42,078 nt of DNA from an uncultured bacterium (lineage in GTDB: Bacteria > Ratteibacteria > UBA8468 > B48-G9 > JAFGKM01): the NCBI GenBank assembly GCA_964403465.1, contig CAYOFY010000006.1:1-42078 (forward strand). Direction: 5' to 3'. This document shows positions 5,649-31,606 of this stretch, piece by piece. How positions within the stretch are numbered: the stretch's first letter is position 1; each line of letters opens with the position of its first letter. A program made the translations under genes and the position numbers. The notes under the pieces were generated by a model. The model was not told the DNA's origin, searched no databases, and saw only the letters and a list, made by a program, of their open reading frames with translations.

Positions 5649-5651
5649 TAT

Positions 5652-10290: not shown

Positions 10291-10302
10291 GCAAACCCTC
10301 CT

Positions 10303-11673: not shown

Positions 11674-12297
11674 TTACCTGCTTTCCTTTTTCTCGTCGCT
11701 GATAAAGGCGATTCTCCTGCAGCGGGGGCATACTATTTTCAGCATATCCGTTCTTTGCACCGGAGGCGTGAATTTCTCCTCCGCGTCGGTTCTTATCTCC
11801 AGTTCTTCCATGAGCCGGGATACCATCACCGGCTGTGCAAATCCGAGGTTTTTCACCCGCCGGAATGTCCAGATAATATGTTTTTCTGTACCTATTATCT
11901 CCCCGCAATCACTGCATACGAGAAGTTTGTGCTGGATTGAATTTGTGACGTCCTTCTCGTCAAAATAGGCGATGTCAAATTTCGTTGACAATTTTATGCC
12001 TTCCTTGGTGATGCAGTTGCGCTCGCACTCGCCGCAGAAGATGCACTCGGCCGGGTGGTGCACCAGCGTTCGCGTGCCTGACCCGTCGTTGTTGACAGTA
12101 TCAATCATCTCAATGGCTTTTGCAGGGCATACCTGGAAACATGCACCGCATCCGACGCAGCCATCCTCGTTGTATTCCGGTTTTCCCCTGTATCTCTTCG
12201 GAGCCGCATACGGCTTGAACGGGAAGCCCGTCGTGAACGGCCTTGAGAATAGACTTGTAATTGCCTCCCTCAATTCCCTTATCTTGGGTTTCTTCAT
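11674..12297 (-). CDS. NuoI/HycF/MbhN-like 4Fe-4S subunit
   Basis: YRGKP...CVGCGACFQVCP and CIFCGECERNC, plus CSDCG and CPRCRR. Confidence 0.9.
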   Translation of the reverse strand: MKKPKIRELREAITSLFSRPFTTGFPFKPYAAPKRYRGKPEYNEDGCVGCGACFQVCPAKAIEMIDTVNNDGSGTRTLVHHPAECIFCGECERNCITKEGIKLSTKFDIAYFDEKDVTNSIQHKLLVCSDCGEIIGTEKHIIWTFRRVKNLGFAQPVMVSRLMEELEIRTDAEEKFTPPVQRTDMLKIVCPRCRRIAFISDEKKESR

Positions 12298-12298
12298 A

Positions 12299-13504
12299 TC
12301 AAATCTCTTTCCTTATCTTTTCGGTCTTCTGCACTGACGTCTCAACCAGTTGCCGGAAATCATAAATCTGCTTCTTCCTGTTACCGGCATCGTAAACCGC
12401 CACCCTTTCAGTACAGCAGTAGCAGGGGTCCACTCCTGCCAGGATGATCGCAACATCGGGTATCATCTGCCCGATGCAGCTGGCCTTGAATGTCGGTATA
12501 TTCGTATAACTGGGGGCACGTATCTTATGCCTCACCGGCCTGTTTGTACCGTCGCTTCTCACGTAGTGGAAGCATTCTCCTCTCGGGGCCTCGTGATGCC
12601 CGATACCTTCTCCGGGCGGGATTTCCCTTATCTCGTTCTGTATCTCCCCGCCTTTCCCTTCAATGGCGTCAAGAGACTGCTCTATTATCTTTATGGACTC
12701 AAACATCTCAAGGAGTCGTACCACCGCCTTATCAAAAACATCGCCGTGTTCAGCGGTTATAACCTTAAAATCCAGCATGGGGTATGCGGCGTAAGGGTCA
12801 TCCTTTCTTATGTCTCCCGATACTCCGCTTGCCCTGGCGACCGGACCCACCGCTCCGAAATTCTTGATATGTTCTTTCGTCAGTACCCCGACGCCTTTCA
12901 GGCGCGCCCCGAGGACAGGGTCGTCAAGCACCGCATGTGTCAGCATTTCCACCTGGCCCTTCAGTCCTTTCAGCACTTTTCTGAGCGCGGGCATATCCTC
13001 TTCCTCTATGTTCCTTCGAACCCCGCCTATCTTGAACATTGCATAGTGATTCCTATTGCCGGTTATTATTTCAAACATGTCCAGAACCGGCTCGCGGTAT
13101 TTCCATGCCCACATGAATACGGTGTTGTAGCCCAGGAAATGCCCGGCAAGTCCGACCCAGAGGAGATGGCTGTGAATCCTTTCCAGTTCTCCGACGATGC
13201 ACCTTATGTAACCTGCCCGTTCCGGGACCGTTGAGCCCAGAAGATCCTCAACCGCGTTGCAGTACGCGAAAGGATGCGAGGTTGAGCATATGCCGCATAT
13301 CCTTTCCACGAGGAAGGTCACCTGGTCCCAGTGCTTGCCCTCGGATAGTTTCTCTATCGCCCTGTGGTTGTATCCCGCCTGCCACTCAACATCCACGACC
13401 TTTTCCCCGTCGCAGTAAAGGGCGAAAAACTCCGGTTCTTCCAGAAGCGGATGATACGGTCCTATCGGTACGATTACTTTTTTCTTCCCCTTGTCTTCAG
13501 CCAT
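12299..13504 (-). CDS. Group 4 [NiFe]-hydrogenase large (catalytic) subunit
   Basis: L1 ERICGICSTSH and L2 DPCYCCTER retain all four Ni-Fe cysteines. Also PIGPYHP, GYNHRAIEK and HEAPRGE, with a 34-aa extension after the L2 Arg. Confidence 0.93.
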   Translation of the reverse strand: MAEDKGKKKVIVPIGPYHPLLEEPEFFALYCDGEKVVDVEWQAGYNHRAIEKLSEGKHWDQVTFLVERICGICSTSHPFAYCNAVEDLLGSTVPERAGYIRCIVGELERIHSHLLWVGLAGHFLGYNTVFMWAWKYREPVLDMFEIITGNRNHYAMFKIGGVRRNIEEEDMPALRKVLKGLKGQVEMLTHAVLDDPVLGARLKGVGVLTKEHIKNFGAVGPVARASGVSGDIRKDDPYAAYPMLDFKVITAEHGDVFDKAVVRLLEMFESIKIIEQSLDAIEGKGGEIQNEIREIPPGEGIGHHEAPRGECFHYVRSDGTNRPVRHKIRAPSYTNIPTFKASCIGQMIPDVAIILAGVDPCYCCTERVAVYDAGNRKKQIYDFRQLVETSVQKTEKIRKEI

Positions 13505-13925
13505 TTTTTCCCTTCCTCAGCGGATAATTACCTTTTTCCCAGTCGTCGCGCAGGAGGAAATGCGTCAAGCCCGGGTGCCCGGTAAAGTTGATCCCGAGCA
13601 GTTCCTTCATCTCCCGTTCAATATAGGAAATGCCGGGTATTATGTCAGTCATTGACTCAATCTCGGGATTTTTCTTGTCAAGATAGGTCCTGACGGAAAC
13701 AACCGTTCCTTCGCTGTCAAACCCGAAATGGTACAGTATCTCGAAAGAGTCGAAGTTTTCAACGCCCGAAGCGACGATATATCTTGCATCAAGGTCCCCG
13801 AAGATTGTTTTTATGCAATTCTTGACGGCTGCCCTGTCAACTGTTATATAAATTCTCTTGTTATTGTGCTTCACTTCCTTTATAACTGCGCCGAGTCTTT
13901 CTTTCAGTTTATCAAGAACGTTCAT
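13497..13925 (-). CDS. NuoC/MbhK-like subunit
   Basis: FEILYHF, IEREMKELLGINF.GHP and YPLRK. Start moved to ATG 13925 (ATGA overlap). Confidence 0.88.
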   Translation of the reverse strand: MNVLDKLKERLGAVIKEVKHNNKRIYITVDRAAVKNCIKTIFGDLDARYIVASGVENFDSFEILYHFGFDSEGTVVSVRTYLDKKNPEIESMTDIIPGISYIEREMKELLGINFTGHPGLTHFLLRDDWEKGNYPLRKGKNG

Positions 13926-14338
13926 TTCAGTTTCTCCAGCAGTTTCACTATCCCGGCGATCATCGCCTCGGGTTTTGGCGGGCAACCCGGGATATACACG
14001 TCCACGGGTATAAGCCTGTCAAGGGGGCCCCCCATCTGGGGTCCTTCCCTGAAGATACCACCGGTACAGGCACAGGCTCCTATGGCAACCACGACGCACG
14101 GCTTTGCCGTCTGCGCATATACCTCTTTTACCCGCTCAATGCACTTCTTGTTCACTATGCCCGTGCAGAGGAGTACATCCGCATGCCTGGGGCTGCCCAC
14201 AAGAACCATCCCGAATCTTTCAATGTCAAAACGCGGGGTAAGACAGTCAAGAATCTCTATGTCGCAGTTATTGCAGGAACCGCCAGACATATGGTAAACC
14301 CAGAGCGATTTCTTCAATGCCTTGATTTTCAGACCCAT
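13922..14338 (-). CDS. Group 4 hydrogenase small subunit (NuoB/MbhJ/HycG-like)
   Basis: GSCNNCDIE, SPRHADVL, GACACTGG and VYIPGCPPKP. Confidence 0.93.
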   Translation of the reverse strand: MGLKIKALKKSLWVYHMSGGSCNNCDIEILDCLTPRFDIERFGMVLVGSPRHADVLLCTGIVNKKCIERVKEVYAQTAKPCVVVAIGACACTGGIFREGPQMGGPLDRLIPVDVYIPGCPPKPEAMIAGIVKLLEKLK

Positions 14339-14344
14339 TTCAAG

Positions 14345-15274
14345 TTACCATCCCTTTACAGCCAGCAGAACACCTATAACGCCGAGAAGCGTAAGCCATC
14401 CCCAAAAGAACCTTAACGCCTGGTCTATCCTCAAACGGGGATTCGTGTTTTTTATAAGGACGAACAGTACCAGAATAAAAAGGTATTTCAATATCCCCAG
14501 CAGGATGCCCGTGAACGAAGAAAAAAACATCCCCCCGAGGTAAAGAGTGACGACAAACAGCGGGCCAACTATGAGCAGCATGGCCTTGGCGAGTTTGAAA
14601 AGCCCCAGCAGGATGCCGGAATATTCTATGAAGGCGCCTGAGGCAAGTTCTCCTTCGGCTTCAGCCAGGTCAAAAGGAACGAGCCCTATCTTGCCCTGCA
14701 GCGCAAAAACCGCTATGATGAAGCCGATGATGCCCGAAAGTGACCCCAGAGTCATGCCGTTCGCGTTCTGAAACCGGATAATATCCACCATTGAGGTTGT
14801 TCCGGAGCTTTTCACCGCGGGTATGATAAGGGCGCAGACGAACGGAAGTTCATATCCGAGAAGGAGTTTTATCTCCCTGCTTATTCCCACGGATGCCAGG
14901 ACGTTTCCAGAAGCGCTTCCACCCAGTATTATGGCGAGGGAAGGAACGGTCATGAGGTAAAGAAGGAGGATGGCATCGCCGGGGAAAGCGAGACCTGTTC
15001 TGAAGACGAGTAATATTATCGTTCCGCAGACAGAGGTAGCCATGACCGCGAGAACCGGTGCGAAAACGAACATGAAAACACTCGCTTTTTCAGGTATCAT
15101 TGTTTCCTTGCCCGCAAGTTTTGCAAAATCCGCGAAGTTCTGGTACCAAGGCGGTCCCACCCTGAACTGAAGTCGTGCCGTGACCTTTCTTTCCGCCCAC
15201 ATGGCAAGCAGACCGCATATGCCGAAAACCGCAATGCTCATGACAAAGTAAAGAAGTATGTAAAAAGCATTCAT
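14345..15274 (-). CDS. NuoH/MbhM/HycD-like membrane subunit
   Basis: ERKVTARLQFRVGPP, DFAKL..KE, PFDLAEAEGEL..G..IEYSG and PRLRIDQ. Confidence 0.92.
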   Translation of the reverse strand: MNAFYILLYFVMSIAVFGICGLLAMWAERKVTARLQFRVGPPWYQNFADFAKLAGKETMIPEKASVFMFVFAPVLAVMATSVCGTIILLVFRTGLAFPGDAILLLYLMTVPSLAIILGGSASGNVLASVGISREIKLLLGYELPFVCALIIPAVKSSGTTSMVDIIRFQNANGMTLGSLSGIIGFIIAVFALQGKIGLVPFDLAEAEGELASGAFIEYSGILLGLFKLAKAMLLIVGPLFVVTLYLGGMFFSSFTGILLGILKYLFILVLFVLIKNTNPRLRIDQALRFFWGWLTLLGVIGVLLAVKGW

Positions 15275-15762
15275 TTTTTTATTGCGTTAATGTCCAGCCA
15301 GTTGAGAACCCTGACCAGGATATTATCACCCAGTTGATAAAAGTTCTTCCTGTCCTCTATCTTTTCTTCATCCAGATATTGCACGGCGCCGTTCCTGCAG
15401 CTTGCGGCACAGAGGGGCTGTTCTCCTTCCCTGAGTCTTCCAAGACATGCATCGCACCTGCTCACAAGATATGGTATCAGTTCGGGCAGTATGGTGCCGA
15501 ACGGACAGGCGAGGGAACAGGTTTTGCATGACACGCACAGTATTTTAGAACGTTTGACCAAACCCGCTTCCCGTTTTAGCGCTCCTGTGGGGCAGCTATT
15601 CACGCACGGATAATCTTCACACCTCCTGCATGCGAACATAAACGCAAGTTCTTCCCGCAGTCCTGTTATCCCGTTATTTTCAGGGTGCATCCAGTAACTG
15701 CACTTTATATCCGCACTCCCTGATTCCAGCAGTTTGTCGTAATCAATATACAGTTTCTTCAT
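15271..15762 (-). CDS. DmsB/HydN/CooF-type Fe-S electron-transfer protein
   Basis: CRRCEDYPCVNSCP, CVSCKTCSLACP and CDAC...PLCAASC. The first Cys motif is degenerate. Confidence 0.85.
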   Translation of the reverse strand: MKKLYIDYDKLLESGSADIKCSYWMHPENNGITGLREELAFMFACRRCEDYPCVNSCPTGALKREAGLVKRSKILCVSCKTCSLACPFGTILPELIPYLVSRCDACLGRLREGEQPLCAASCRNGAVQYLDEEKIEDRKNFYQLGDNILVRVLNWLDINAIKK

Positions 15763-15769
15763 TTTTCTT

Positions 15770-15830
15770 ATTCGCCCTCATCCCTGTTTCCCTCTTCCTT
15801 GAGGGGAGAGGATTAAGGTGAGGGTGAAAT
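15770..15830. repeat. BoxC/REP-like intergenic stem-loop
   Basis: ATTCGCCCTCATCC...CCTCTTCCT-TG-AGGGGAGAGG...GGTGAGGGTGAAAT: nested inverted repeat with a pyrimidine-rich left arm and purine-rich right arm. Confidence 0.65.
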
Positions 15831-16661
15831 TCATACCCAGATATTCGGCTTGTTCTTTATCTGGTCGTACGTGAACACCGGACCGTCCTTGCATACAAAC
15901 AGGTCTCCGATGAGGCAGTGCCTGCACTGGCCTACCCCGCAATACATCTTCCTTTCCATGGAAAGGTATATCTGCTGGTCACTGTACCCTATTTCCAGCA
16001 GTTTCAGCGTCGTAAACTTCATCATGATGGGCGGCCCGCAGACGACAGCCACGGAATTCTTTATGTCAATATCAATGCCGTCCAGGGTCTTCGTGACCAC
16101 CCCTTCTCCGTACTTCCACTTATCGTCCTTCCTGTCAACGGTTATCCGGAAACAAAGGGGCAGTTTCTTGCAGAGAGTATGCCATTGGTCCAGTATCTTA
16201 TCCTTGTATATATAATCATCCGGTGTCTTGGCCCCGCAGCAAAAGACTATCTTCCTGTAGTTATTCACCGTTTCCAGAAGTGCGAGGAAAAGCGCCCTCA
16301 GGGGGGCAAGTCCCACGCCTCCCCCGACCAGGAGTATCTCTTTTCCCCTGTAATAATCCAGGGGATACGGTTTCCCGTAAGGGCCTCTGACTCCGACGCT
16401 GTCGCCTGCCTTGAGGTTGTGTATCTCTGCCGTAACCCTGCCCGCCTTCATCACCGTGAATTCCAGAGTTTCCTTCTGATAGGGGGAAGAAGAGGGCGTG
16501 AAAGGTGCTTCGCCAACACCCGGCACTGTCAGGGACGCAAACTGCCCCGCCAGAAAAGAAAACTCTTTTTCAGGTTTGAGAATAACCGTTTTTATCGTGG
16601 GCGATTCGGTTATTACCTCCAGCACCTTGCACCTGATAGGCTCGTAAATATTCTTATCCAT
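15831..16661 (-). CDS. FAD/NAD(P)-binding oxidoreductase with 2Fe-2S cluster (AsrB/HydG/FlxA/PyrK family)
   Basis: AGQF...GEAPF, GRVT, GVRGPYG, GGGVGLAP, VCGPPIMM and ERKMYCGVGQCRHC...VCKDGPVF. Confidence 0.92.
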   Translation of the reverse strand: MDKNIYEPIRCKVLEVITESPTIKTVILKPEKEFSFLAGQFASLTVPGVGEAPFTPSSSPYQKETLEFTVMKAGRVTAEIHNLKAGDSVGVRGPYGKPYPLDYYRGKEILLVGGGVGLAPLRALFLALLETVNNYRKIVFCCGAKTPDDYIYKDKILDQWHTLCKKLPLCFRITVDRKDDKWKYGEGVVTKTLDGIDIDIKNSVAVVCGPPIMMKFTTLKLLEIGYSDQQIYLSMERKMYCGVGQCRHCLIGDLFVCKDGPVFTYDQIKNKPNIWV

Positions 16662-16663
16662 GA

Positions 16664-17683
16664 CTACATCTTCCTTTTTTCCCTCAAGATTTCCGTCACC
16701 ACCCGTCGCTTGTCAATCTTTCCCGCGCATCCCGCGATGCACCTTCCGCATCCGGTGCATCCCTTCATGCCGAAGTTCTCAACCATGTACCAGTACTTGC
16801 AGAGTAAACGGTTTGCGTACCTGTCGTAAAGCGTAGGTCTCGGAGAGGTGCCTGCTGCCATCCTTGCGTAGCCGGGAAAAAGACAGCTGTCCCATACCCT
16901 TGTTTTCCGCATCTCTTTCTGGTTGCCCGTATCTTCAAGGAGGAAACACACGCAGGTAGGGCAGTTGTTCGTGCAGCTCCCGCACTGCACACAGTTTTCA
17001 ACCTCTTTCGGCATCTTCCATAACTCGGTCTGGTATGCGCCCTTCAGGTCTTCAATGTTCGCGAAGTCAAAATCCCTGTTATTTTCCCTTATCGTTTCAA
17101 CCGCCTTCTGTCTGTTTATGTCGCGTTTCCTGATTTGCTCGCCCGTGGTCTGGAAAAACTTCTGGTCTTCACCGATGAAGGATTTTCCTTTATCCGTGCC
17201 CACCTCTACCAGAAAACCTTCTTCAAACTGGGAAAGATTCAGGTCAAAATTTCTTTCCGGATAAGGATGCAGGAAACCGAGAATTTCGCAGAAACAGGAA
17301 GGGTAAGGAGATATGCAATCAAAACTGACGATGAGGGTTCTTTCCCTCCTTGCCGCATAGTTTGGGTCTTTATATTCACCATCTCTGAATACCCTGTCAA
17401 GTATCTCCAGCCCCTTGAGGTCGCAGGCCGCGGGTCCCATGATCACGGTATCCCCTATGCCGGTGACAGACGGTACGACTCTTTCCTTGAACGGAAAGAG
17501 CATCAGCTTGAGCGGTTCAACCGGCCTTGCCCTGTTATATACGATGCTCGTCTCATTGCCGGGTGCAATTCTCTTGTAGAAAAGAGCGCCATTGAAATCA
17601 ACGGGGGCAAATATCCTGGACATGCCGTTCCTGCCTTTGATGAAACTTTCCCAGTCTTTCCGGGCTATGTAGAGGGTCTCCAT
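16664..17683 (-). CDS. 4Fe-4S protein, AsrA/HydB (sulfhydrogenase beta)/FlxB family
   Basis: ACDL, D..Y..RRE, C...SCFC, CVQCGSCTNNCPTCVCF, RVWDSC and GCTGCGRCIAGC. Confidence 0.9.
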   Translation of the reverse strand: METLYIARKDWESFIKGRNGMSRIFAPVDFNGALFYKRIAPGNETSIVYNRARPVEPLKLMLFPFKERVVPSVTGIGDTVIMGPAACDLKGLEILDRVFRDGEYKDPNYAARRERTLIVSFDCISPYPSCFCEILGFLHPYPERNFDLNLSQFEEGFLVEVGTDKGKSFIGEDQKFFQTTGEQIRKRDINRQKAVETIRENNRDFDFANIEDLKGAYQTELWKMPKEVENCVQCGSCTNNCPTCVCFLLEDTGNQKEMRKTRVWDSCLFPGYARMAAGTSPRPTLYDRYANRLLCKYWYMVENFGMKGCTGCGRCIAGCAGKIDKRRVVTEILREKRKM

Positions 17684-20902: not shown

Positions 20903-21087
20903 TATATCAAACAGATTTCATCCGGAGAGCGTCGTTGGCTGCGTCGTCGGCTTCCTCAACCCCGATTTATCGGGGCCTTCGTCGCCTTCTCTCCCGAATA
21001 AGATGCATCGGGATCCCGACAAAGGCCGTCTGCCTTTGTCAGTCGGGACTTGCCGTCTTGCTCTCCGGCGAACTCCATTTGCTATTA
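20903..21087. repeat. ERIC/IRU-like hairpin element, copy 1, with an internal 57-bp cassette at 20992-21048
   Basis: Core TCGTTGGCTGCGTCGTCGG...CTTGCCGTCTTG shared with 31426-31606. Closing stem CCGGAGAGC/GCTCTCCGG. Outer limits approximate. Confidence 0.8.
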
Positions 21088-21108
21088 TCTTAGTTGTTCA
21101 AAAACATT

Positions 21109-22206
21109 TTATACGGACGGCAGGTTGTAATCCACCCTCACCCTCTTGCCGCCCTGCCTGAAGGATTCCTCGCATGCAAATACGCAGGCCATTGTCTTCC
21201 AGCTGTCAAAAGCGCTCATAAGGGGTTGTCTGCCGTCCCTCATACGGTTGACAAAGTCGCTGAAGAACCCCCTTGAGTCGTGGTGCAGGGTTGTATCGGG
21301 CATACCAGGATAACTCTCCATCCTGGTCAGGGCGGTTTTCCCTCCGGGCCCGCTGAAATTGAATATCTGTATGTATCCTTTCCATCCGTCCGCCCTGAGG
21401 GAACCCTCGGAACCGGCGACGCTTACATTATATTCGTGCCCCAGTTCGTTCTCCATGCCCGTGGGAGCGTAATATACAGCCCTGTGCTGAAGCGTTACAA
21501 GGTTGGCAAGTTTTTCGCCGGGGAAGAAACAGAACGTGCTTGCCGGCTCGCGGTAGGCCCTGTGCCATCCCTGCGGACCCTTGAGTTCCGGTGCGGGAAT
21601 TGCCAGCACCTCCTCCGGGTCAATCCCCATGTAACTGCGGAATATGTCCAGCCGGTGACATCCTTCCTCAATATAGTAACCACCGACCTTGGCCAGGTCG
21701 GAGTGCCAGTTGCCGGATTCTCTGATGAATCCCTGTCCGCCGCAGAAGTGATTGAAGAGAATATTCTTTGGTTCCCCTATCTCTCCAGCATCAATAATCT
21801 CCTTGACCCTTCTGGTCTGCAGCGAATACCTCAGTTCAAAATCTATCTGCATGCACTTGCCGCTCTCTTTCTCGGCTTTGAGCATGAGGGCAATCTCTTT
21901 CTTCGTCATGCCGAAAGGTTTCTCAGAGAACACGTGCTTCCCTGATTTGAGCGCGGCTATTGCAACCTCCCAATGCATGAAATTGGGCGTAGCGTTATAA
22001 ATGACCTCTATATCCTTCTGTTCGCACAATTTCCTGTAATCGCTGTATGTTTTCACTCCGTACTCTTCTTCGGCCGACCTCCTTCTTCCTTCCTCGCTTT
22101 CCGCAATGCCGGTAAGTTCAATATCAGGCCGGTTTTTCATGATATCTTCCGCTGCCCCTTTGCCGATATTTCCAAAACCCACGACCCCGACCCTGATTTT
22201 TCTCAT
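21109..22206 (-). CDS. Gfo/Idh/MocA-family oxidoreductase
   Basis: VGVVGFGNIG, ATPNFMH, GKHVFSEKP and GG...EEGCHRLD. Confidence 0.9.
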   Translation of the reverse strand: MRKIRVGVVGFGNIGKGAAEDIMKNRPDIELTGIAESEEGRRRSAEEEYGVKTYSDYRKLCEQKDIEVIYNATPNFMHWEVAIAALKSGKHVFSEKPFGMTKKEIALMLKAEKESGKCMQIDFELRYSLQTRRVKEIIDAGEIGEPKNILFNHFCGGQGFIRESGNWHSDLAKVGGYYIEEGCHRLDIFRSYMGIDPEEVLAIPAPELKGPQGWHRAYREPASTFCFFPGEKLANLVTLQHRAVYYAPTGMENELGHEYNVSVAGSEGSLRADGWKGYIQIFNFSGPGGKTALTRMESYPGMPDTTLHHDSRGFFSDFVNRMRDGRQPLMSAFDSWKTMACVFACEESFRQGGKRVRVDYNLPSV

Positions 22207-22221
22207 TTTCCATAGCTCCTT

Positions 22222-22833
22222 TTATCTGACCCCTGCTATCTTATGCATCTGCATACGTAGATACCAGTTCTCTTCCGGTCTTTTTTTGAGAAACCTGATT
22301 ATTTCTTTTGCCGTTGAAATCCTGTTATCAGCCGGTTGCAGGATAACAGGATTTTTTATCTTCCTGTCTATGAATCCCATATCACGCGCTGAAGAGATAA
22401 CGTATTTGAACTCCGAAGCAGTTTTCATAAACCTTCTGTCGTATCCGTGCGGATGGTATCGCAAACCCTCCTGTTTCGGACTCACCGTGAGCCAGTCAAG
22501 CGGCAGACGTTGCCAGAGTGTTCCGCTGGTCTCCGCCGAAACCCAGTAACTTTCCCTCTTGAGACATTTTACGAGGGATGAGAGATTCTGCAAAAAGGGC
22601 TCTCCTCCGGTTATGCAGACCCTTCTGCAGCGGTATCTTCCTGCCGCCCGCAGGATTTCCGCTACCCCTTTCTCCCTGCCGCCTTTGAGGGCATATTTCG
22701 TATCGCAGAATCTGCAGTGCAGGTTGCAGCCCGCCAGTCTTATGAAGACCATGGGGAGTCCCTGCTTGAGTCCCTCTCCCTGCACCGAGTAAAAGATCTC
22801 CGATATCCTGTATACCAGGTTTTCCGCTTCCAT
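22222..22833 (-). CDS. queE: 7-carboxy-7-deazaguanine synthase QueE (radical SAM)
   Basis: EIFYSVQGEG, FIRLAGCNLHCRFCDT, ITGGEP, ETSGT, TVSPK and QMHK. Confidence 0.93.
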   Translation of the reverse strand: MEAENLVYRISEIFYSVQGEGLKQGLPMVFIRLAGCNLHCRFCDTKYALKGGREKGVAEILRAAGRYRCRRVCITGGEPFLQNLSSLVKCLKRESYWVSAETSGTLWQRLPLDWLTVSPKQEGLRYHPHGYDRRFMKTASEFKYVISSARDMGFIDRKIKNPVILQPADNRISTAKEIIRFLKKRPEENWYLRMQMHKIAGVR

Positions 22834-22842
22834 TCAAGGAAT

Positions 22843-23667
22843 CTATTTTGCAAAGTCAAGTATCCCGAATTCCTCAATCAAATGGTAATTAGTCACGGAC
22901 AGTTGCGGGACCATGGACAATTCTTTCCATGTTAAATAACGTGAAAAGTTGTACCTTGCCACAAGAATCCTCCATCCCGTGCCCGGGCCGAAGGCGTCAC
23001 CGTGGGCAATAAGGCCCTTCACCGGAATCGCCATCTCAGCGGTCCAGTATTCATCCACATCCTCCCAGTTGTTGAGGGTTCCCTTGACCTGTGCTCCCAC
23101 CAGAACGTCATCAAGGTTCATGCCGGGTTCAAACCCGCTCTTCAAGCCGAGTCTTCCCCTGCCGGGGAACCAGAAGACGGTCTTTTTTTCGTTGGGCGTG
23201 CCGTATATTTCCCAGTACCAGGAGCTGTTTTCCGGCTTTATGAATATCTCCACAAGGTCTCCGCTTGCATAAAAGTGCTGCTGGTTCTCATCACTTTCCT
23301 GCACTATATCAGAATCATAGAATTTAATGCCCACGTAAAGATAATTTTCATCCCATGCGAGTCTTGCCTCTCCGCCTTCTTTCAGCCGGTCTGCCCCGGG
23401 GCTCCTGTCCTTCTTTTTCAGCGCGAGTCTGTCAGCGCTGGACAGCGTGAGGTTATAGACGGCGGATTTTATCCATACGGGGTCGTCCAGAATTCCGTCC
23501 ACAGTCACGGGGTTTTCCGTGTACTGCGCAACAAGGACAGCAGGTCCGACAGGTTCCCTGAACCTTGTCTTGATTGACTCGAATTTCTCCCTGGTTGCGG
23601 CACAGCCCGTCATCATCAGCGCTGTTAACATCGCCAAACCGTACAACGAATATTTCTTCCTGTACAT
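22843..23667 (-). CDS. Lipoprotein with a carbohydrate-binding family 9-like (DOMON-like) domain
   Basis: Lipobox MTGC, VDGILDDPVW, LAWDENYLYVG, DLVEIFI and WTAEMAIP; GGAGG RBS. Confidence 0.75.
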   Translation of the reverse strand: MYRKKYSLYGLAMLTALMMTGCAATREKFESIKTRFREPVGPAVLVAQYTENPVTVDGILDDPVWIKSAVYNLTLSSADRLALKKKDRSPGADRLKEGGEARLAWDENYLYVGIKFYDSDIVQESDENQQHFYASGDLVEIFIKPENSSWYWEIYGTPNEKKTVFWFPGRGRLGLKSGFEPGMNLDDVLVGAQVKGTLNNWEDVDEYWTAEMAIPVKGLIAHGDAFGPGTGWRILVARYNFSRYLTWKELSMVPQLSVTNYHLIEEFGILDFAK

Positions 23668-23761
23668 TCACAACCTCCTTTACCCCGAACCGGGCAATGA
23701 CAAGCAGTAAGGGATTTCGTTTTCGCTTCTTCCATCTGCTTGATGTTTACTGGCGGGGAAT

Positions 23762-23827
23762 ACTATATCATTAGAGGATATTTTTTGCAACAGGAAGATT
23801 TACGTTGCCTGCCGGGTGTGGTATTAT
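23762..23827. promoter_or_regulatory. Divergent sigma70 promoters
   Basis: Minus strand: TTGCAA (23790-23785)-17-TATAGT with TG extension. Plus strand: TTTACG (23799-23804)-17-TATTAT (23822-23827) with TG extension. Confidence 0.6.
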
Positions 23828-23833
23828 TAACCA

Positions 23834-24076
23834 ATGAAGATCGCCGTGCGGGTAACCGCAAACTCCAGGAAGCCCAGGGTCTCCGAGGAAGGGGTGGCCA
23901 ACTTCGTCAAGGTGTGGGTGGATGCACCGGCACTGGAAGGACGTGCAAACAAAAGGCTCCTGGAGATACTCTCGGAACATTATAATAAACCCAGGACGGC
24001 ATTTGTAATCAGGAAAGGTTTTAACAGCAGGAACAAAATCATAGAGATACGGGATCGGGATGGGGACAAACGGTGA
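23834..24076 (+). CDS. DUF167/YggU-family protein
   Basis: VRVTANSRK, VKVWVDAPALEGRAN and I.KG..SRNKI. Confidence 0.88.
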   Translation: MKIAVRVTANSRKPRVSEEGVANFVKVWVDAPALEGRANKRLLEILSEHYNKPRTAFVIRKGFNSRNKIIEIRDRDGDKR

Positions 24077-24680
24077 AATGATTCTGGTTGAAAGGGCGAA
24101 GAAGGGCGACATGAAAGCGTTTGAACGCCTCATGAAGACGACCAGCAGCAAGATATATAACCTTGGATACAGACTGCTCAGGAACCGCGAGGATGCTGCC
24201 GACGTCATGCAGGAAACGTACATGTCTGCCTACGAAAATCTTCCTAGGTTCAGAGGCAACTCCTCGTTTTCAACCTGGCTTTACCGGATAGCGACCAATT
24301 TTGCGCTGATGAAGATGCGGAAGGAAAAAGGCAAAAAGGTATCTTCCTCAGAGTTGCAGGAAGCCTCCGGAGATCTATATGAAAAGGCGCTTCCGGACTG
24401 GTCTGAAAGCCCTGTTGACCACCTGAAAAACCAGGAACTGAAAGAGGTGCTGGATAAGGCGATAGACTCCCTGCCGCCGAAATACAGGTCTGTTTTTGTC
24501 CTTCACGACATAGAAGGATTGGGTATTGCCGAGGTTGCCGGCATACTTTCCATTTCAGAGCCGGCCGTGAAAACCAGGTCGCACAGGAGCCGTCTATATC
24601 TGCGGGAGAAACTGTCCGAATACTTCAGGCAGGGCCGTGGAGACGCCCAGAAGCATTTGCTAAAACAGGAAAGAATATGA
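24060..24680 (+). CDS. ECF RNA polymerase sigma factor
   Basis: GD..AFE.L, DAADVMQETY, FSTWLYRIATN, LP.KYR.VF.L and AVKTRSHR.R. Start uncertain (24060 or 24078). Confidence 0.93.
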   Translation: MGTNGEMILVERAKKGDMKAFERLMKTTSSKIYNLGYRLLRNREDAADVMQETYMSAYENLPRFRGNSSFSTWLYRIATNFALMKMRKEKGKKVSSSELQEASGDLYEKALPDWSESPVDHLKNQELKEVLDKAIDSLPPKYRSVFVLHDIEGLGIAEVAGILSISEPAVKTRSHRSRLYLREKLSEYFRQGRGDAQKHLLKQERI

Positions 24681-24910
24681 ATTGCGAACAGATTATGCGG
24701 CTGATATCCGGGTATCTGGACGATGATATTGACGCGTTGATGAAGGATATGCTGGAGAGGCATCTTGAGGAATGTGAAAGATGCCTTTCCATGCTTCGCA
24801 CAATGGAAAGAACCATCTCTTTTTCCAGGGAAATGAACAGGAGGAGAAAGGTTCCCGGGAAAGTCATGAACAGGGTTTACTACGAGATAAGAATAAGATA
24901 CAGGAAATGA
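24677..24910 (+). CDS. Soluble zinc-binding anti-sigma factor (zf-HC2/ZAS)
   Basis: MNC...LISGYLD and HLEECERC (HxxxCxxC). No transmembrane segment; ATGA-coupled to the sigma gene. Confidence 0.88.
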   Translation: MNCEQIMRLISGYLDDDIDALMKDMLERHLEECERCLSMLRTMERTISFSREMNRRRKVPGKVMNRVYYEIRIRYRK

Positions 24911-25836
24911 GAGACAAGAGCATTATCATAATCGGCGCAGGTCCCGCCGGGCTGTCGGCCGGGGTCTATTCTGTAAGGGCAGGGATAAGAACCGTGATTG
25001 TTGAAAGGCTTCTTGCCGGAGGAAGCATGCTGCTCACGGAAAGGATAGAGAATTACCCCGGTTTCCCCGAAGGCATTTCGGGTTATGAACTGGCCGAGAA
25101 GATGAAGGGGCAGTACCTGAGGTTCGGCGGCGAGGTTGTGCAGGGCGATGTCAGTGAAGTTTTTTTCGGAGAAGCAAGCAAGGGGGTGCGGATGAAGGAT
25201 GGCCGGGAGATGAGATCAGGAGCACTCATAATTGCGAGCGGCTCGTCAAGGAAGAAACTCGGGGTTGAGGGAGAAGACGCATACACGGGAAAGGGGGTCT
25301 CTTTCTGCGCGGTCTGCGACGGTGCGTTTTTCAAGGGGAAAAGGATAGCCGTGATTGGAGGGGGTGACTCGGCCCTGGAGGAGGCGATATACCTGACGAG
25401 ATACGTTGATACATGCTATCTGGTGCACAGGCGGGATGAATTCAGGGCATCGGCGTATCTGCAGGAGGAGATGAAAAAACATCCTTCCATCAGGCCGGTT
25501 CTATCCGCCGTGCCCGAGAAGATAGAGGGGGACGGAAAGATTGTGAAAAGGATAATCCTGAGGGACAAAAAGACGGGTAACGTACAGCCTCTTGATGTGG
25601 ACGGCATCTTTATCTCGGTCGGCCAGACGCCGAACGTGGAGTTCATCAGCGGAAAGATTGAGCAGAATCCTGCCGGGTATATAGTGACAGACTACAGGAT
25701 GGCAACTTCCGAAAGGGGTGTTTTCGCCTGCGGTGATGTGATGAAGAAATCGCTGTATCAGGTTGTAACCGCGTGCGGTGAGGGTGCCACGGCCGCATCC
25801 TCCGCGGAAAAATACCTTGCAGGAGGGCCGGGGTAA
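24907..25836 (+). CDS. trxB: Thioredoxin-disulfide reductase
   Basis: IIGAGPAGL, IENYPGF, GVSFCAVCDG, GGGDSALEEA, HRRDEFRA and GVFACGD. Start moved to ATG 24907 (ATGA overlap). Confidence 0.95.
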   Translation: MRDKSIIIIGAGPAGLSAGVYSVRAGIRTVIVERLLAGGSMLLTERIENYPGFPEGISGYELAEKMKGQYLRFGGEVVQGDVSEVFFGEASKGVRMKDGREMRSGALIIASGSSRKKLGVEGEDAYTGKGVSFCAVCDGAFFKGKRIAVIGGGDSALEEAIYLTRYVDTCYLVHRRDEFRASAYLQEEMKKHPSIRPVLSAVPEKIEGDGKIVKRIILRDKKTGNVQPLDVDGIFISVGQTPNVEFISGKIEQNPAGYIVTDYRMATSERGVFACGDVMKKSLYQVVTACGEGATAASSAEKYLAGGPG

Positions 25837-25869
25837 ACATTTTTCCTGACAGAACGGCGTGAGGAACGC

Positions 25870-27556
25870 GATGGAAACCAGGATCGTGGTTGATTCAGGA
25901 AGCCAGGTTAATCACAGGAGGGTCGGGAAGTCCATTGTCCGGGCCCTTGAGCACCTTGGCGTCCACTATGAGCCTGTCGACCTTTCCTGGACAAGGATTT
26001 CCTACGAAGAACTTGAAAACGTCCACCTCCTGGTACTCGCGCAGGAAGGGATAGGGAAATCCCTCAGCGGAGAAGAAACCAGCATCATCCTGAGGACGGT
26101 AAACCAGGGGATGGGCCTTCTGGTTCTTGACGGATACCTTGAGTGGTATCCTGCCTCCTTCCTGAGAGATATCAGTCTTGAAAGAGGGGGTTCAGGCAGA
26201 ACCGAATCTCTGAGAGTCTCTCCCGGAAACCGCATCATAAGAAGTATCTCAAGCCCCAAGGTTGAAATGAAGATGCCGGTACTGTCCTATAACGTACCGA
26301 AGACTCCCGAATGGAATCCTCTTTTGCTTGATGGACAGGATAACATCTGCGGCGTATACAGGAAGTTCGGAAAGGGCAGGATTGTATTTTTTCTGCTCTC
26401 CGCTTCGCTGTGGCAGGATGAATATCTCGGGTTAACGGCGGGTCTTGACGGCCTTTTCCGCAGCAGCGTTTCCTGGGCGGCAAAAAAACCATACATCATG
26501 AAAGCAATGCCGCCCTTTGTTGCCGCAAGGATTGACGATGTCTCCTTTTCCGGGAGTCCTGTCGCCGCATGCAGGGAAACCGTTGAGGGTGCCGCGTGGC
26601 TTGACATATTGAACAGGTTCAACTTCGTGCCGAATACGGGATTGTTCATAGACGATATACAGAACCGGGACATCAGACGCATGCGGGAAAAATATTACGA
26701 CGGCCTTGCCGAGTTCTCGCCGCACGCCTTTACGGACCCGGACAACACTAATGGAAGCCCCATCTACATGAAGCACAGCGGCGAGGAGTTTACCGAGGAT
26801 GTCCTGGGGGCAAACTTTGAAAAGGTTGACAGGAAATTCGCCGGGTTCGGCATCACGCCGGCAAAGACCGTCAATGCACACTTCGGTGAAATCGGCCTCA
26901 GGGCGCTGCCTTTCCTCAAGGCGAGGAAGGAGAGGTATCTCATGAATCCCATAAGGGTTGGCAGGGTCTGGGCTGACCGGTCCGCGCATTCGTGGGATGT
27001 CGGACCTTACGGGAAGCCGGCATTTTCCCTGGGAATCATACCCGAGGACAGGGATTTCTTCAATGTGACGTCCCATCCGGGAATTATGGATTCAGAATCG
27101 CCCGACTTTGATTTTCTCTGCGGATGCACGACATTCTGGAAAGAAAATTCTTCCACCGATGTCAAAAAGGCAGTGGAGAGGGGGCTCTTTCATATCAAGA
27201 GGGGGCTTGAGAACGGTTTTTTCGGTTGCCTGATGACGCACGAGGAGAGGATTGCGCACCTTACGCCCGGGGAGTGGGAAACAATTCTCAGGGGCATATC
27301 TTCGGGATTGAAAGATATTCCCCACACGCTCAAGAGTTACGATTACATAAGCAGTTATGCTGAAAACAGGACTTTCTACAGGATAGAAAAGGCGGAGTTC
27401 AGCAAGAACCTGTCCATATGGCTAAAGGGCAGGAATACCATGCCGCAGTATCTCTGCCTCTTCCTTGACGAAGGCGACTCCACCGTGGAGAGTTTTCTTG
27501 AAGTTCCCGTCTTTGAAAACTCCGTCGTTCTGAACTTCCAGTTGAGACAGCCCTGA
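25870..27556 (+). CDS. Hypothetical protein, possibly with a NodB/polysaccharide-deacetylase-like barrel
   Basis: Long ORF with ARIDD, EFSPHAF, NAHFGE and LMTHEE, spaced like the Asp-His-His motifs of carbohydrate esterases. N-terminal part resembles a GATase-like fold (GKGRIVFF). Function is inferred; start 25859 or 25870. Confidence 0.6.
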
Positions 27557-27601
27557 TCCAGATAGGAGAAGTCAAAAACCATCCCCCTTTGGCAAAATGG
27601 G

Positions 27602-28393
27602 TCAAAATTCCCCGGCCAGTTCTGATGAAATTTTTTCAACAGTTTTTTTAACTCTTTCCAGAGAGCCTATGTTATCGATTATCGAATCAAGATAAAGGTC
27701 ATTGAAAACTACAAAACCGTTCTTAAGATAGATAAAATATTTATGAAACGAAGACAATGCTTTCCTATAGCCATCCTTATCCTTAACTCGCGGGCTCTGA
27801 GATTTTCTCTCAAACTCTTTTAAATCAAAAACAGCATAAGGAATAGTAACTACCTTGCTTTTTCTCACAATTTTCAGGGCCTCTTTTCGTTGACTTATTT
27901 TGGCTATCTGGAAACCTATACTATTTATTCTCGCATCTATCCCCTTGCTATCCAAATCGGCGTTGGATTCAATTAATAAATCCCTGCTTTTTTTGGCACA
28001 TAGAGCTCTAAATAAATAGCAGAAATCCAACTGAGTGAGTACTGATACCCAGGTTCTATACATTCTGGCTTTAAATCCGAGGGAAACCTTCTCATCCAAG
28101 TCACCATTAATCTTATCATCATAAAATTTTCTATGTGCACGAACGAGGTCTTTTAAATCGCCAAATTTCTCTTTATTTCTAATTTCACTCCAGAATTTGG
28201 CAAACCAATCTTCGAAACTTAAAAAATCACGAGATTCCCAGTAGTTGCTGTAGATTGACGGCAGAGGGTATAGGGAAGGTACCAAATCTTGTTCTACCCA
28301 CTTGACATCTCTTAATTCTTCCCTGTATTTATCCAGGGGGATACTTTCAAGAAATTTGCGATATTTTTCTAAGTCAGTAATTGGATTTTTCAT
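27602..28393 (-). CDS. Type II restriction endonuclease, TaqI family
   Basis: FLESIPLDKY...VKWVEQDL...PLPSIY..YW, G.KAR.YRT.VS..TQ..FCY, LDSKGIDA and LKNGFVVF match my recollection of R.TaqI. 263 aa from ATG 28393, which overlaps the MTase stop (ATGA). Confidence 0.85.
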   Translation of the reverse strand: MKNPITDLEKYRKFLESIPLDKYREELRDVKWVEQDLVPSLYPLPSIYSNYWESRDFLSFEDWFAKFWSEIRNKEKFGDLKDLVRAHRKFYDDKINGDLDEKVSLGFKARMYRTWVSVLTQLDFCYLFRALCAKKSRDLLIESNADLDSKGIDARINSIGFQIAKISQRKEALKIVRKSKVVTIPYAVFDLKEFERKSQSPRVKDKDGYRKALSSFHKYFIYLKNGFVVFNDLYLDSIIDNIGSLERVKKTVEKISSELAGEF

Positions 28394-29799
28394 CGGAAAC
28401 ACCTTCTTATTTTCTCCCATTCTTTCTTGATCGGCAGAGGAAGATTTTTTAATTGGGTAATGCTCAAATGGTATGTAATCTCCCTGTAAACATCCTTCAC
28501 GTATCTATTTATAAAATCCGAATTTAAATACTCCACCACCAGAGAATCGCTTATATCGCAATTAATGTTAAACAGGTTGGGTCTCTTTAGCAAATGATAG
28601 ACATCCCCCATCCATGGATAGCATTTTTCATCAAGAGAAGCTCCTATTCTTCCGTTTCCACGGAAGCCTAATCCGACTACAATATGCGGCATATTAAAAT
28701 ATCCACGTAGTTTTTTTGCATCGGTCTTTTTAATCCAGTAACCTGTAAGGTTATTATAAATAATTTCATTATATTTAAGGTTTCTACCATTCAAAATAGG
28801 CATATAACCGTTTTCCCTGAAAATTTTTTCTTCTTTTATTATGCGGGGATTATTCTTAATTTCAGGAGTTCGTGGCGAAATTCTAATTTCATAAATATCG
28901 CCCAAACTATAAGAACAACATTGTTCCAGCATACGGGTGTACTTTGTTTCGAATTTTACTGTTTCACCTTGCCAATTAGAATTGGTTGTTATCGTTTCAA
29001 ATGCATTATTCCGATATTCCAGAAGTTCTAACCTGGAAATAAACTCTTTGGACTTTACAAAATTTAATATAACCGATGAAACATCAGCTTCCGGCTTAAA
29101 AACATCGGGTCCTAAGTAAATTATGGCGCTTCCTCCATTTTGGGAAAGAAAACCCCGAAGTTTTTTAAACTCATCCAGAATCATGAATGTTGCAGGAACG
29201 ATAAAAATCAATTGCCCTTTATCCTTAAGCAATTTGATTGATTTTTCTATAAAAGCACCGTAAACATTGTATTTTCCATACCATGTTTCATATAAACTTT
29301 TGTATTTATTCTTGGTGGGAAGGTCTATTTTAATAGTATAATGTTCAGAAGGGCTGGGAATTCCATAAGGCGGGTTGCCGATAATCAAATCAAAAGAGGA
29401 CCTTGTATTCCATTGCAGGTAATCATCGTTGATTATCTGAATGTTGTTGTCAACATTTAAAGTAGTTAAATAATTGATTACATCCTGGTTAATTTCCACC
29501 CCAAGGAGACGTGCTTGCTTAAAAAGTGCAGGTTTATTCCTCTTAATTCCAATTAAGAACTGCGTTAAGCCACAGGCCGGTTCAAGAATATTAGTTTTTC
29601 TATCAGGATATTCGGGAAGATTTATCAAATTTACCATGAAATCAACAATTCGTTCAGGTGTAAAGAAAATTCCATAGTTTTTTTTAACACCTTTGAGATT
29701 GTTATTTACAATATTTTGATGTATTTTATAGTCAATCAATACCTCCTCTTTTATAAGTAGTGGTTTGTATATTTCCCCTTGATATCTTGTTTTTTTCAT
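28390..29799 (-). CDS. N6-adenine DNA methyltransferase, M.TaqI-like (gamma class)
   Basis: GIFFTPE.IVDFM, ILEPACG, GVEI, FDLIIGNPPYG, GKYNVYGAFIEK and C-terminal TaqI_C-like target recognition domain (PHIVVG, YPWMGD). The ORF-track extension to 30213 is antisense to hisB; exact start uncertain. Confidence 0.88.
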   Translation of the reverse strand: MKKTRYQGEIYKPLLIKEEVLIDYKIHQNIVNNNLKGVKKNYGIFFTPERIVDFMVNLINLPEYPDRKTNILEPACGLTQFLIGIKRNKPALFKQARLLGVEINQDVINYLTTLNVDNNIQIINDDYLQWNTRSSFDLIIGNPPYGIPSPSEHYTIKIDLPTKNKYKSLYETWYGKYNVYGAFIEKSIKLLKDKGQLIFIVPATFMILDEFKKLRGFLSQNGGSAIIYLGPDVFKPEADVSSVILNFVKSKEFISRLELLEYRNNAFETITTNSNWQGETVKFETKYTRMLEQCCSYSLGDIYEIRISPRTPEIKNNPRIIKEEKIFRENGYMPILNGRNLKYNEIIYNNLTGYWIKKTDAKKLRGYFNMPHIVVGLGFRGNGRIGASLDEKCYPWMGDVYHLLKRPNLFNINCDISDSLVVEYLNSDFINRYVKDVYREITYHLSITQLKNLPLPIKKEWEKIRRCFR

Positions 29800-29922
29800 G
29801 GTATGAAAAGTTGTCTGGCAAAAAGATGAAAAATCTACCTGCAAAGGCCCTCCGGTCGTTCTCTTAATCCCAACGGTAGTATTATACAATAAAATAGAAA
29901 ATCTGAAAATTTGTGCGGCGAA

Positions 29923-29950
29923 TTGACAGACGGGGCGGTTTTGATAAAAT
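29923..29950 (+). promoter_or_regulatory. Sigma70 promoter of hisB-xerC (probably leaderless)
   Basis: TTGACA (29923-29928), 16-nt spacer, TAAAAT (29945-29950) with TG extension; ATG follows after 6 nt. Confidence 0.7.
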
Positions 29951-29956
29951 AAAGGT

Positions 29957-30541
29957 ATGGAAAGAAAGGCGAAGGTAGAGAGGAAAACAAAAGAGACTGA
30001 CATATCGGTAGATATAAACCTTGACGGCAGGGGTGATTGCAGCATATCCACCGGGGTTGGCTTTCTTGACCACATGCTGGAACTTCTCTCCAGATTCTCA
30101 GGCATTGACATCAGGATAAAGGCGAAGGGTGACCTTGAGGTTGATGAGCACCATCTTGTGGAGGATGCGGGTATATGCCTGGGGCAGGCGCTGAAGAATG
30201 CGCTCGGCGACAAGAAGGGGATAAGGAGGTTCGGTTATGCCTCGTCACCCATGGACGAGACGCTGGTAAATGCATCGCTTGACATATCTGGCCGGCCTCT
30301 GCTTGTTTTCAACGTTCCGGCCGTGAGGGGCCGCGAGGGGAGTTTTGAAACCGAGGATGCAAAAGAGTTTATAAAAGGGTTTGCGATGCACGGCGGCATA
30401 ACGCTTCACATAAACCTTGTTTACGGGGAGAACCTGCATCACATCAACGAGGCGGTTTTCAAATCGCTGGCGCTCGCTCTGAGGGATGCCGTCAGGATTG
30501 AAGGAAACCGCATCCCGTCAACGAAGGGGAAGATAGACTGA
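29957..30541 (+). CDS. hisB: Imidazoleglycerol-phosphate dehydratase
   Basis: RKTKETDI, FLDHML, GDLEVDEHHLVED, PMDE, N.HH..EA.FK and PSTKG. Confidence 0.96.
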   Translation: MERKAKVERKTKETDISVDINLDGRGDCSISTGVGFLDHMLELLSRFSGIDIRIKAKGDLEVDEHHLVEDAGICLGQALKNALGDKKGIRRFGYASSPMDETLVNASLDISGRPLLVFNVPAVRGREGSFETEDAKEFIKGFAMHGGITLHINLVYGENLHHINEAVFKSLALALRDAVRIEGNRIPSTKGKID

Positions 30542-30549
30542 CGCAACTC

Positions 30550-31425
30550 ATGAAACAGTCGCTCAAGAAATTCCTTGACTACCTTGCCCACCAGAAGAAC
30601 TGCTCTTCCAATACGATACGGGCGTACAAAACAGACCTGCGGCAGTTCCTTGCATTCCTGAGCGGCAGGAGGGTATCCTCGCTCCGGGGGGTGGATTATC
30701 CCTTGCTTCTGAACTTCCTGGCCCATCTCAAGGAAGGGGATGACTGCACCGAGAAAACGCTGGCAAGGAAGGTGGCGAGCCTGAAGGCATTTTTCAGGTT
30801 CCTGAGCGGCAGGAAGATGATTCATTCCAATCCTGCACTGCTCCTGCGTTCACCGAAGGTTCCCGAAAGACTCCCTGTATTTCTCACCGTCAAGGAAATG
30901 CTCAGGATTATTGAAGCGCCCTCGGGCGGAAACTGGCAGGCAGCCAGGGACAGGGCGATACTGGAAATCCTGTATGCGACAGGCATAAGGGTCGGAGAGC
31001 TGACCTCGCTGAAAAGGAAGAACGTGGACTTGGTGGAAGAGATGGTAAAGGTTGAAGGCAAGGGGAAGAAGGAGAGGATTGTGCCTGTCGGCAGGCCGGC
31101 AATCAACGCCCTCATAGAGTACATGGAAAGAAAGCCGCACAGAGGGGAAGAAACGGTCTTCCTGAACAAGTACGGCAGGCCGCTGACGGAAAGGGGTGTC
31201 GAGAGGATTGTTGACAAATACGCAAGGCACGCAGGTATGGGCAGAAAGATTACACCGCATACCTTCCGGCACACCTTTGCGACCCACATGCTTGAGAGGG
31301 GTGCCGATCTCAGGACCGTCCAGGAACTTCTGGGGCACGAGAGGATAACCACCACCCAGATCTACACCCATCTTACCGTTGAACGGCTCAGGGAGTTCTA
31401 CAATAAAGCCCATCCCCGCGCCTGA
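30550..31425 (+). CDS. xerC: Tyrosine recombinase XerC/XerD
   Basis: T..AY..DL, RDRAILE.LYATGIRV.EL, GKG.KER, TPHTFRHTFATH, LLGH, TTQIYTH and HPRA end. Confidence 0.9.
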   Translation: MKQSLKKFLDYLAHQKNCSSNTIRAYKTDLRQFLAFLSGRRVSSLRGVDYPLLLNFLAHLKEGDDCTEKTLARKVASLKAFFRFLSGRKMIHSNPALLLRSPKVPERLPVFLTVKEMLRIIEAPSGGNWQAARDRAILEILYATGIRVGELTSLKRKNVDLVEEMVKVEGKGKKERIVPVGRPAINALIEYMERKPHRGEETVFLNKYGRPLTERGVERIVDKYARHAGMGRKITPHTFRHTFATHMLERGADLRTVQELLGHERITTTQIYTHLTVERLREFYNKAHPRA

Positions 31426-31606
31426 TTCCGATTAGTCTTTCTTCATATAGCTTCGTTGGCTGCGTCGTCGGTATCCTCAGCGTATTCTTTACATACGCTT
31501 CGTCGTCCCGAATAAGATGCATCGGGATCCCGACAAAGGCCGTCTGCCTTTGTCAGTCGGGACCTCCTCCTTGCCGTCTTGCTATATTTTGAAATACTAA
31601 CCGGGA
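31426..31606. repeat. ERIC/IRU-like hairpin element, copy 2, with an internal 57-bp cassette at 31506-31562
   Basis: Same core as copy 1. Long imperfect terminal stem TTCCG-ATTAGT...TTCA-TATAGC / GCTATA-TTTTGAA-ATACTAA-CCGGGA. Confidence 0.8.

Follow-up and report, generated by a model that had tools for sequence, protein, structure and literature searches.

A 57-bp double-hairpin cassette at recurrent sites of an intergenic repeat in an uncultured bacterium of the Ratteibacteria

The window, as the whole stretch of DNA analysed is called here, comprises 42,078 nucleotides from an uncultured bacterium of the Ratteibacteria and is contig C6 (CAYOFY010000006.1) of genome G000, an assembly of 1.69 Mb in 145 contigs that is 94% complete. 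Two intergenic regions of the window hold copies of a longer repeat, the host repeat, and each copy is interrupted by the same gene-less cassette of 57 bp (Table 1). The cassette is a real, recently active micro-element, a tiny repeat similar to the repetitive extragenic palindromes (REPs) and the small dispersed repeats (SDRs), and it is likely to be among the smallest mobile DNAs. Comparisons were made with a phylum set of 65 genomes and a genus set of nine, the 57-mer being searched for among 61 relatives, and with metagenome runs, for which the evidence consists of assembled contigs throughout. The runs that hold DNA of the window are labelled freshwater or freshwater sediment; no RNA dataset holding the window is listed. 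The cassette copies counted below are kin and not independent of each other.

Table 1. Positions of the cassettes, their units and the host repeats in the window, and of pseudo-tRNA-Pro copies elsewhere in G000
Feature	Position	Strand	Remarks
Host repeat copy 1	20905..21087	+	ends approximate; between GFO oxidoreductase gene and queC
CCCCGA...TCGGGG palindrome, 16 bp	20960..20975	.	replaces the host's central hairpin; right junction again 5' of CCT
Cassette copy 1, 57 bp	20992..21048	+	host site A (CTC^CTT), without target duplication
22-bp unit of copy 1	20992..21013	+	6-bp stem, 10-nt loop
35-bp unit of copy 1	21014..21048	+	outer TCCCG/CGGGA stem and inner 8-bp stem
Host repeat copy 2	31428..31604	+	ends approximate; flanked by XerC/D-type recombinase gene and glucosamine-6-phosphate isomerase-like gene
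Cassette copy 2, 57 bp	31506..31562	+	host site B (TCG^CCT), without target duplication
22-bp unit of copy 2	31506..31527	+	
35-bp unit of copy 2	31528..31562	+	
Pseudo-tRNA-Pro copies of G000	C27:13790-14025 (L242)		anticodon arm replaced by 22-bp hairpin
Pseudo-tRNA-Pro copies of G000	C53:11200-11346 (L243)		anticodon arm replaced by 22-bp hairpin

The cassette and its sites in the host repeat

The two cassettes of the window are identical over 57 nt, and the identity reaches 58 nt (family D9) because a host C follows the cassette in both; a chance match is excluded (BLAST E 3e-24). The sequence folds as two hairpins, one of 22 bp and one of 35 bp, both with TCCCGA...TCGGGA as their ends. 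An earlier note, made from the letters of the window alone, had described the identical 57-mers and their two hairpins, insertion points 7 nt apart without target duplication, and a 16-bp palindrome in place of the central hairpin of host copy 1. All of these descriptions were confirmed, and at both insertion points the host sequence runs uninterrupted in empty copies of G000 and of five congeners.

In G000 there are 39 occurrences of the pattern TCCCGA-N3..25-TCGGGA where 5.4 are expected, and two of its reverse orientation, for which the expectation is the same. Pairing is preserved in 98.9% of cells across the cassette copies, with one compensatory change. The 22-bp and 35-bp units were always together in the copies examined for junctions. 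Some copies of the congener G003 are a 60-bp variant with a replaced right arm in the first unit and an ATCA head ahead of the second. No Rfam family was found for the cassette or for the host repeat.

The host repeat is an imperfect palindrome of approximately 120 bp when empty, intergenic and multicopy, with a central CGTA...TACG palindrome; in these traits it is like a published element, to which it may belong. It is common in the genus, with 54 matches across five congeners, and no open reading frames lie within the host copies among the 30 of these matches that were fetched. A hidden Markov model of 17 empty copies gave 23 matches in G000 and one in the reversed genome. By this model G000 holds five filled copies, eight empty near-full copies, and fragments, where C82 and C79 (joined by the strain contig L164) and C30 and C136 (overlapping ends) were each counted as a single copy. 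The host repeat is itself mobile, since it is absent at orthologous sites (that of copy 1 in G008, G001, G007 and G017; that of copy 2 in G008, G024, G021 and G013) and is present within the RNase P RNA gene of G008, where a full copy sits in the P3 helix (L372; C37, about 25990-26110). The orthologous gap between xer and nagB in G008 (L014; C78:39680-39897) has another palindrome, whose ends are those of the element of a REP-associated tyrosine transposase (RAYT) of that genome; this one site has had two independent invaders.

Inserts from several repeat families gather in the host repeat, and it exchanges modules with several of them. In addition to the cassette and the 16-mer of copy 1, it holds DUF559-type hairpins, TCCGCC...GGCGGA units in its left arm (L006, L429, L445), and, in its centre, the REP doublet forming a hairpin (REPIN) of the RAYT of G003. 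The XerC/D gene and a TaqI-like restriction-modification pair lie between the two copies of the window; they were set aside as other cassette loci have no such neighbours.

Both junctions are known for 18 cassette copies, of which 15 are precise insertions, three have lost host bases and none has duplicated any. The precise insertions fall at three sites spaced 7 nt apart: site A (C^CTT) with five copies, site B (TCG^CCT type) with four, and site C (CCG^CCT type) with six. None of the sites is confined to one host subtype or to one cassette variant. The losses amount to 3 nt (L060), 7 nt (L164) and 14 nt (L012), and in all three the right junction is at site C. Within the host repeat the cassettes have a single orientation. 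A C directly follows the cassette in 5/5 copies of G000, 16/16 of G003 and three of the four metagenome copies, the fourth (L201) having a different host and the C on the opposite strand. In all 21 copies of G000 and G003, CCT or CTT follows, and this tail comes from the target and not from the element. Insertion takes place 5' of C(C/T)T, i.e. 3' of G on the purine-rich strand. Among TCCCGA units of G000 at large, 37 of 46 have a 5' G or a 3' C, compared with 42% expected, although these copies are not independent.

The junctions were checked in contigs from eight other runs, of which X2-X5 are possibly the source of the G000 assembly. All four junctions of the window are present there with no differences at the junction. 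A strict bridging rule of 31 letters is satisfied for the left junction of copy 1 (run X5, a possible source of the DNA) and for the right junction of copy 2 (run X7); for the other two, 29-30 letters lie inside the cassette. Overall, it is very probable that the cassette was inserted independently at several sites.

Distribution among genomes, strains and metagenomes

Among the 61 relatives, the 57-mer was found at three or fewer mismatches in G003 only. This genome has at least 16 near-identical cassettes, counted by distinct right flank, at loci other than those of G000. The tandem junction pattern is present in two of the 65 phylum genomes and in none of the other 63, all 14 loci of the 35-bp unit across the species-genome collection belong to G003, and the host copies printed from five congeners contain no cassette.

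G000 and G003 share 75.4% nucleotide identity over 280 long alignments, which cover 791 kb (with overlaps) out of approximately 1.4 Mb of G003. At this level, 57 identical positions would be expected with a probability of about 1e-7 (0.754^57), and one cassette of G003 (L004) is nevertheless identical to that of G000 in 57/57. Other long matches between the genomes reach 86% at most, and no recently shared protein gene was found between G000 and these 791 kb of G003, the top matches being rRNA and repeats. The identity points to recent exchange or strong constraint. Together with the recurrent sites and the empty hosts, it bears out the earlier note, which had proposed a non-autonomous element of very small size that was active recently and has another repeat as its target.

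Two strain loci differ from G000. In L125, with flanks 98-99% like those of C18, a filled host repeat stands where G000 retains a remnant. In L163, which corresponds to the C18/C82 locus of G000, there is a filled copy 94.6% like that of C56, and G000 has an empty, different host copy there. Therefore, host and cassette move or are converted together, as one unit. The earlier note had named as its own refutation that the cassette might be only a fixed part of the larger repeat: the cassette is not fixed in the host, yet it also travels with it, as L125 and L163 illustrate.

Outside these genomes, the 57-mer was found in L134 and L201, which are DNAs of 58-60% GC with no other match to G000. 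There it lies in a REP of the CGTC type and carries one compensatory pair change, and the two loci also hold a second dimer in the tails of CGTC-type REPs. A metagenome scan with a short pattern undersampled the range outside the phylum, 114 of the 119 matches listed not being the cassette. Viral contigs gave no match to the cassette junction and 19 loose matches, two of which (L461 and L473, copies of one locus) are a TCCCGA dimer in an intergenic hairpin loop. The second unit of this dimer resembles the 35-bp unit minus its inner hairpin, and this likeness suggests that the 35-mer is itself nested.

Possible routes of mobility

Small dispersed repeats of the Nostocaceae were reportedly described by Elhai et al. 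in 2008 as 'very small mobile repeated elements' whose enzyme was unknown; they are said to be tens of bases long, to lack genes and to insert precisely into other repeats. By this definition the cassette is alike, being also tens of bases long, gene-less, precisely inserted, and represented by filled and empty sites. It differs in being a hairpin heterodimer of 57-60 bp with fixed TCCCGA ends in another phylum, and the likeness is one of description. SDRs are also mentioned in excerpts of PMC2884548.

REPs of the CGTC type, as described in part of PMC3733652, have stems of 8-9 bp and a short CC-type tail, form heterodimers, are sometimes nested in longer palindromes, and are reported there to lack a dedicated transposase or enzyme. 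In contrast to them, the 57-mer has no CGTC/TGTC tag, begins flush at TCCCGA, joins its units flush end to end, and has abundant empty targets with several offset sites. Classical miniature inverted-repeat transposable elements (MITEs) moved by DDE enzymes differ by their target-site duplication, which is seen in none of the 18 cassette copies.

It may be that no dedicated enzyme is involved. A few rare illegitimate insertions would then have multiplied as the host repeat moved and as its copies underwent gene conversion, which would keep the cassettes identical and would also make the deletions. The joint movement or conversion of host and cassette at L163 is clear, the host swaps modules with several repeat families, and the position of the right junction at site C in all three ragged copies is what a crossover within the cassette would produce. 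However, conversion still needs at least three precise insertions at sites that obey one rule and are common to two species 25% apart, and the same cassette ends occur in another host and another organism (L201). The reciprocal duplication was found in 0/3 cases, although this number is small. Overall, this explanation appears rather unlikely.

The earlier note had suspected that a HUH/RAYT-type enzyme moves the cassette. In this view a Y1/HUH enzyme, such as a RAYT or the TnpA of IS200/IS605 insertion sequences (IS), would cut the cassette out and paste it in as single-stranded DNA. HUH chemistry is compatible with a blunt insertion that duplicates nothing, with the fixed orientation and with a short target preference on one side, and PMC3333891 describes RAYTs as cutting strands that contain REPs and rejoining them at a distance. 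Like the REPs, REPINs and bacterial interspersed mosaic elements (BIMEs) that are associated with RAYTs (PMC3116915, PMC3333891 and PMC8266576, each in part), the cassette is a non-autonomous intergenic hairpin doublet, probably mobilised in trans. RAYTs are present in four of the nine genus genomes, including G003, whose RAYT has its REPIN in the same host repeat as the cassette. Nevertheless, the cleavage rule of RAYTs, C^T or C^A according to the relevant parts of PMC3333891 and PMC8266576, is followed on either strand by 0/18 target junctions, and the GTAG tag is absent from both strands of the 57-mer. The hairpins are terminal and flush to the cassette ends, so that a 5' guide sequence would have no space, whereas in PATE-like MITEs of IS200/IS605 they are subterminal with 5' guide tetranucleotides, and the target there is a fixed tetranucleotide, while C(C/T)T is all that the cassette targets have in common. 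A search of the 94%-complete G000 found no RAYT, and the congeners G002, G004 and G008 have RAYTs without the cassette. The same hairpins had been expected to flank a RAYT, and this was not the case: the single RAYT of G003 is flanked by another repeat, and none of the ten RAYT loci of the genus has the cassette in the flanks printed (from incomplete assemblies), these RAYTs having repeats of their own. Movement by such an enzyme is thus considered unlikely. A search for IS91/Y2 enzymes matched in 0/4 genomes, but its control also matched nowhere. A DUF559 protein in G000 has its own repeat, and no DUF559 protein was found in G003.

IS110-family elements leave little or no duplication, and the cassette could be a miniature of one, inserted by its recombinase into a REP-like target. 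G000 has one IS110 transposase (L474), which fills the whole 1.9-kb contig C143, and IS elements are known to target REPs, as noted in excerpts of PMC3733652. However, the ends of C143 share nothing with the cassette, which largely refutes this origin, no IS110 element was found in G003, the genome with most copies, and the cassette target sites share only the short C(C/T)T; it is very improbable. Finally, contigs often break at the cassette, but an assembly error or one-off local rearrangement as the source of the 7-nt offset, another refutation allowed for in the earlier note, can practically be dismissed, since both window copies are contiguous with the empty consensus, their junctions reappear in contigs from other runs, and G003 has sites A, B and C as well.

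The explanation preferred here, although tentatively, is that the 57-mer is a non-autonomous mobile unit copied into nicks that are made in trans by a short stand-alone GIY-YIG (Slx1-like) nuclease of approximately 90 amino acids. Eukaryotic Slx1 makes single-strand cuts at DNA junctions and has minimal prokaryotic homologues, according to PMC1564403. The host repeat would extrude as a hairpin or cruciform, which a structure-specific nuclease might nick 3' of G. Repair synthesis could then switch template to a filled copy or a free hairpin and return: a return at the same site would give a precise insertion, and one further along would lose host bases or replace a whole arm. Beyond this, the cassette is carried further as a passenger of the host repeat. 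This nick-and-copy scheme rests on the flush TCCCGA...TCGGGA ends, the single orientation, the recurrent sites, and the occasional loss of 3-14 host bases; the build is modular, TCC...GGA units standing end to end.

Short GIY-YIG genes are present in 20 of the 65 genomes, three of them in G003, and 30 of the 33 matches were examined. These were divided into two groups according to their rank against a single query; the genomes are kin. A CGTC-type REP lies alongside 13 of the 14 best-scoring loci (background 5%), and a TCC...GGA hairpin lies within 200 nt upstream of 10 of the 16 weaker-scoring loci (background 11%), many of which are in tRNA arrays. G020 and G024 have, immediately in front of a short GIY-YIG gene, a pseudo-tRNA-Pro with a TCCGC...GCGGA hairpin instead of the anticodon arm; the intact tRNA comes after. 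G000 has four pseudo-tRNA-Pro pieces in which a 22-bp TCCCGA hairpin replaces the anticodon arm, with the same junctions as the hairpins of G020 and G024. The assignment of the enzyme is circumstantial. No published link of GIY-YIG proteins to REPs or palindromes was found in a partial coverage of the literature, so that such a link may already have been published.

Several observations weigh against copying by a GIY-YIG nuclease. No short GIY-YIG gene was found in G000, where the sole match is a 498-aa protein of UvrC size, although this negative is limited as the tRNA-Pro arrays end in an N gap (C27) and at a contig end (C53). Most of the 20 genomes with short GIY-YIG genes have no cassette, and a TCCCGA hairpin lies within 170 nt of 0/30 GIY-YIG loci. 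The natural stems of tRNA-Val(CAC) and tRNA-Pro(CGG) read TCC...GGA, and 5 of 14 pattern matches are normal tRNAs with such stems; therefore, the tRNA link may in part reflect stems that were simply inherited. These normal stems also suggest that the cassette ends may derive from anticodon arms. Covariation in the cassette is not above that of shuffles (one pair, a number reached by 78 of 500 shuffles). Presence and absence of the cassette alone was not seen at any one locus, L125 and L163 differing in the whole host copy, and an empty allele of either window copy is absent from the contigs of the eight runs. The host-base deletions could equally arise by recombination between filled copies.

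A wider proposal is that short GIY-YIG nucleases are the missing mobilisers of tagless TCC...GGA micro-hairpins and of CGTC REPs alike, through scarless nick-primed copying, with the tagless hairpins perhaps born from tRNA anticodon arms where GIY-YIG genes and tRNAs stand in arrays; this is put forward as a doubtful generalisation. If it held, there would be a route of mobility that requires no transposase and writes hairpins scarlessly into structured DNA. The spread of REP-sized DNAs without the GTAG tag is an open question according to Di Nocera et al. The present case offers a defined donor of 57 bp, a defined target in which three sites are mapped and of which empty copies exist, and a candidate enzyme of approximately 90 amino acids, so that copying by a GIY-YIG nuclease can be tested in vitro. 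As a tool, too, a way to insert a very small DNA scarlessly at structured targets would be of interest.

Related hairpins, tRNA loci and other genes of the window

In G000 and G003, further TCCCGA modules, single or end to end, are found within at least four more families of repeats, and empty versions are visible for at least two of these families. Not every TCCCGA hairpin belongs here. The many such hairpins of G055, G056 and G057 were considered as this element and rejected, being ordinary tagged REPs of the CGTC type, of which TCCCGA-N9-TCGGGA is the stem. Similarly, TCCCGA-type hairpins in the P3 helix of RNase P RNA and in a 23S rRNA helix of G000 were rejected as invasions; they are inherited, since cassette-free relatives have similar stems there.

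Two of the four pseudo-tRNA-Pro pieces of G000 occupy the locus that in G003 holds an intact tRNA-Pro(UGG). Neither an intact tRNA-Pro(UGG) nor a tRNA-Pro(CGG) was called in the G000 assembly, and the intact gene probably lies within the N gap or is unassembled. On the same contig C27 (18290-18808; L002), a gene for a four-helix bundle of the 23S rRNA IVP family stands between tRNA-Arg and tRNA-His, whereas this interval in G003 is a gap of 68 bp only.

The best-scoring short GIY-YIG loci, 13 of 14 with CGTC-type REPs alongside, are L479-L487, L497-L499, L505 and L231 (e.g. in G003:C142 and G056:C175). Eight loci (L063, L064, L492, L495, L496, L501, L502 and L503) are short GIY-YIG genes in tRNA-Asn or tRNA-Pro arrays, and in each of them the preceding pseudo-tRNA or tRNA copy has a TCC...GGA hairpin, which is located in the D-loop, within the anticodon arm or immediately after that arm.

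The TaqI-like restriction endonuclease and methylase genes lie at 27602-30213, and hexamers that contain TCGA are rare in G000. Elsewhere in the window there are an AbiEii/AbiEi type IV toxin-antitoxin pair (2911-4193) and an operon that resembles those of membrane-bound NiFe hydrogenases and Mrp antiporters (5163-17683), accompanied by a fusion of HypB with a hydrogenase maturation protease (1760-2887).

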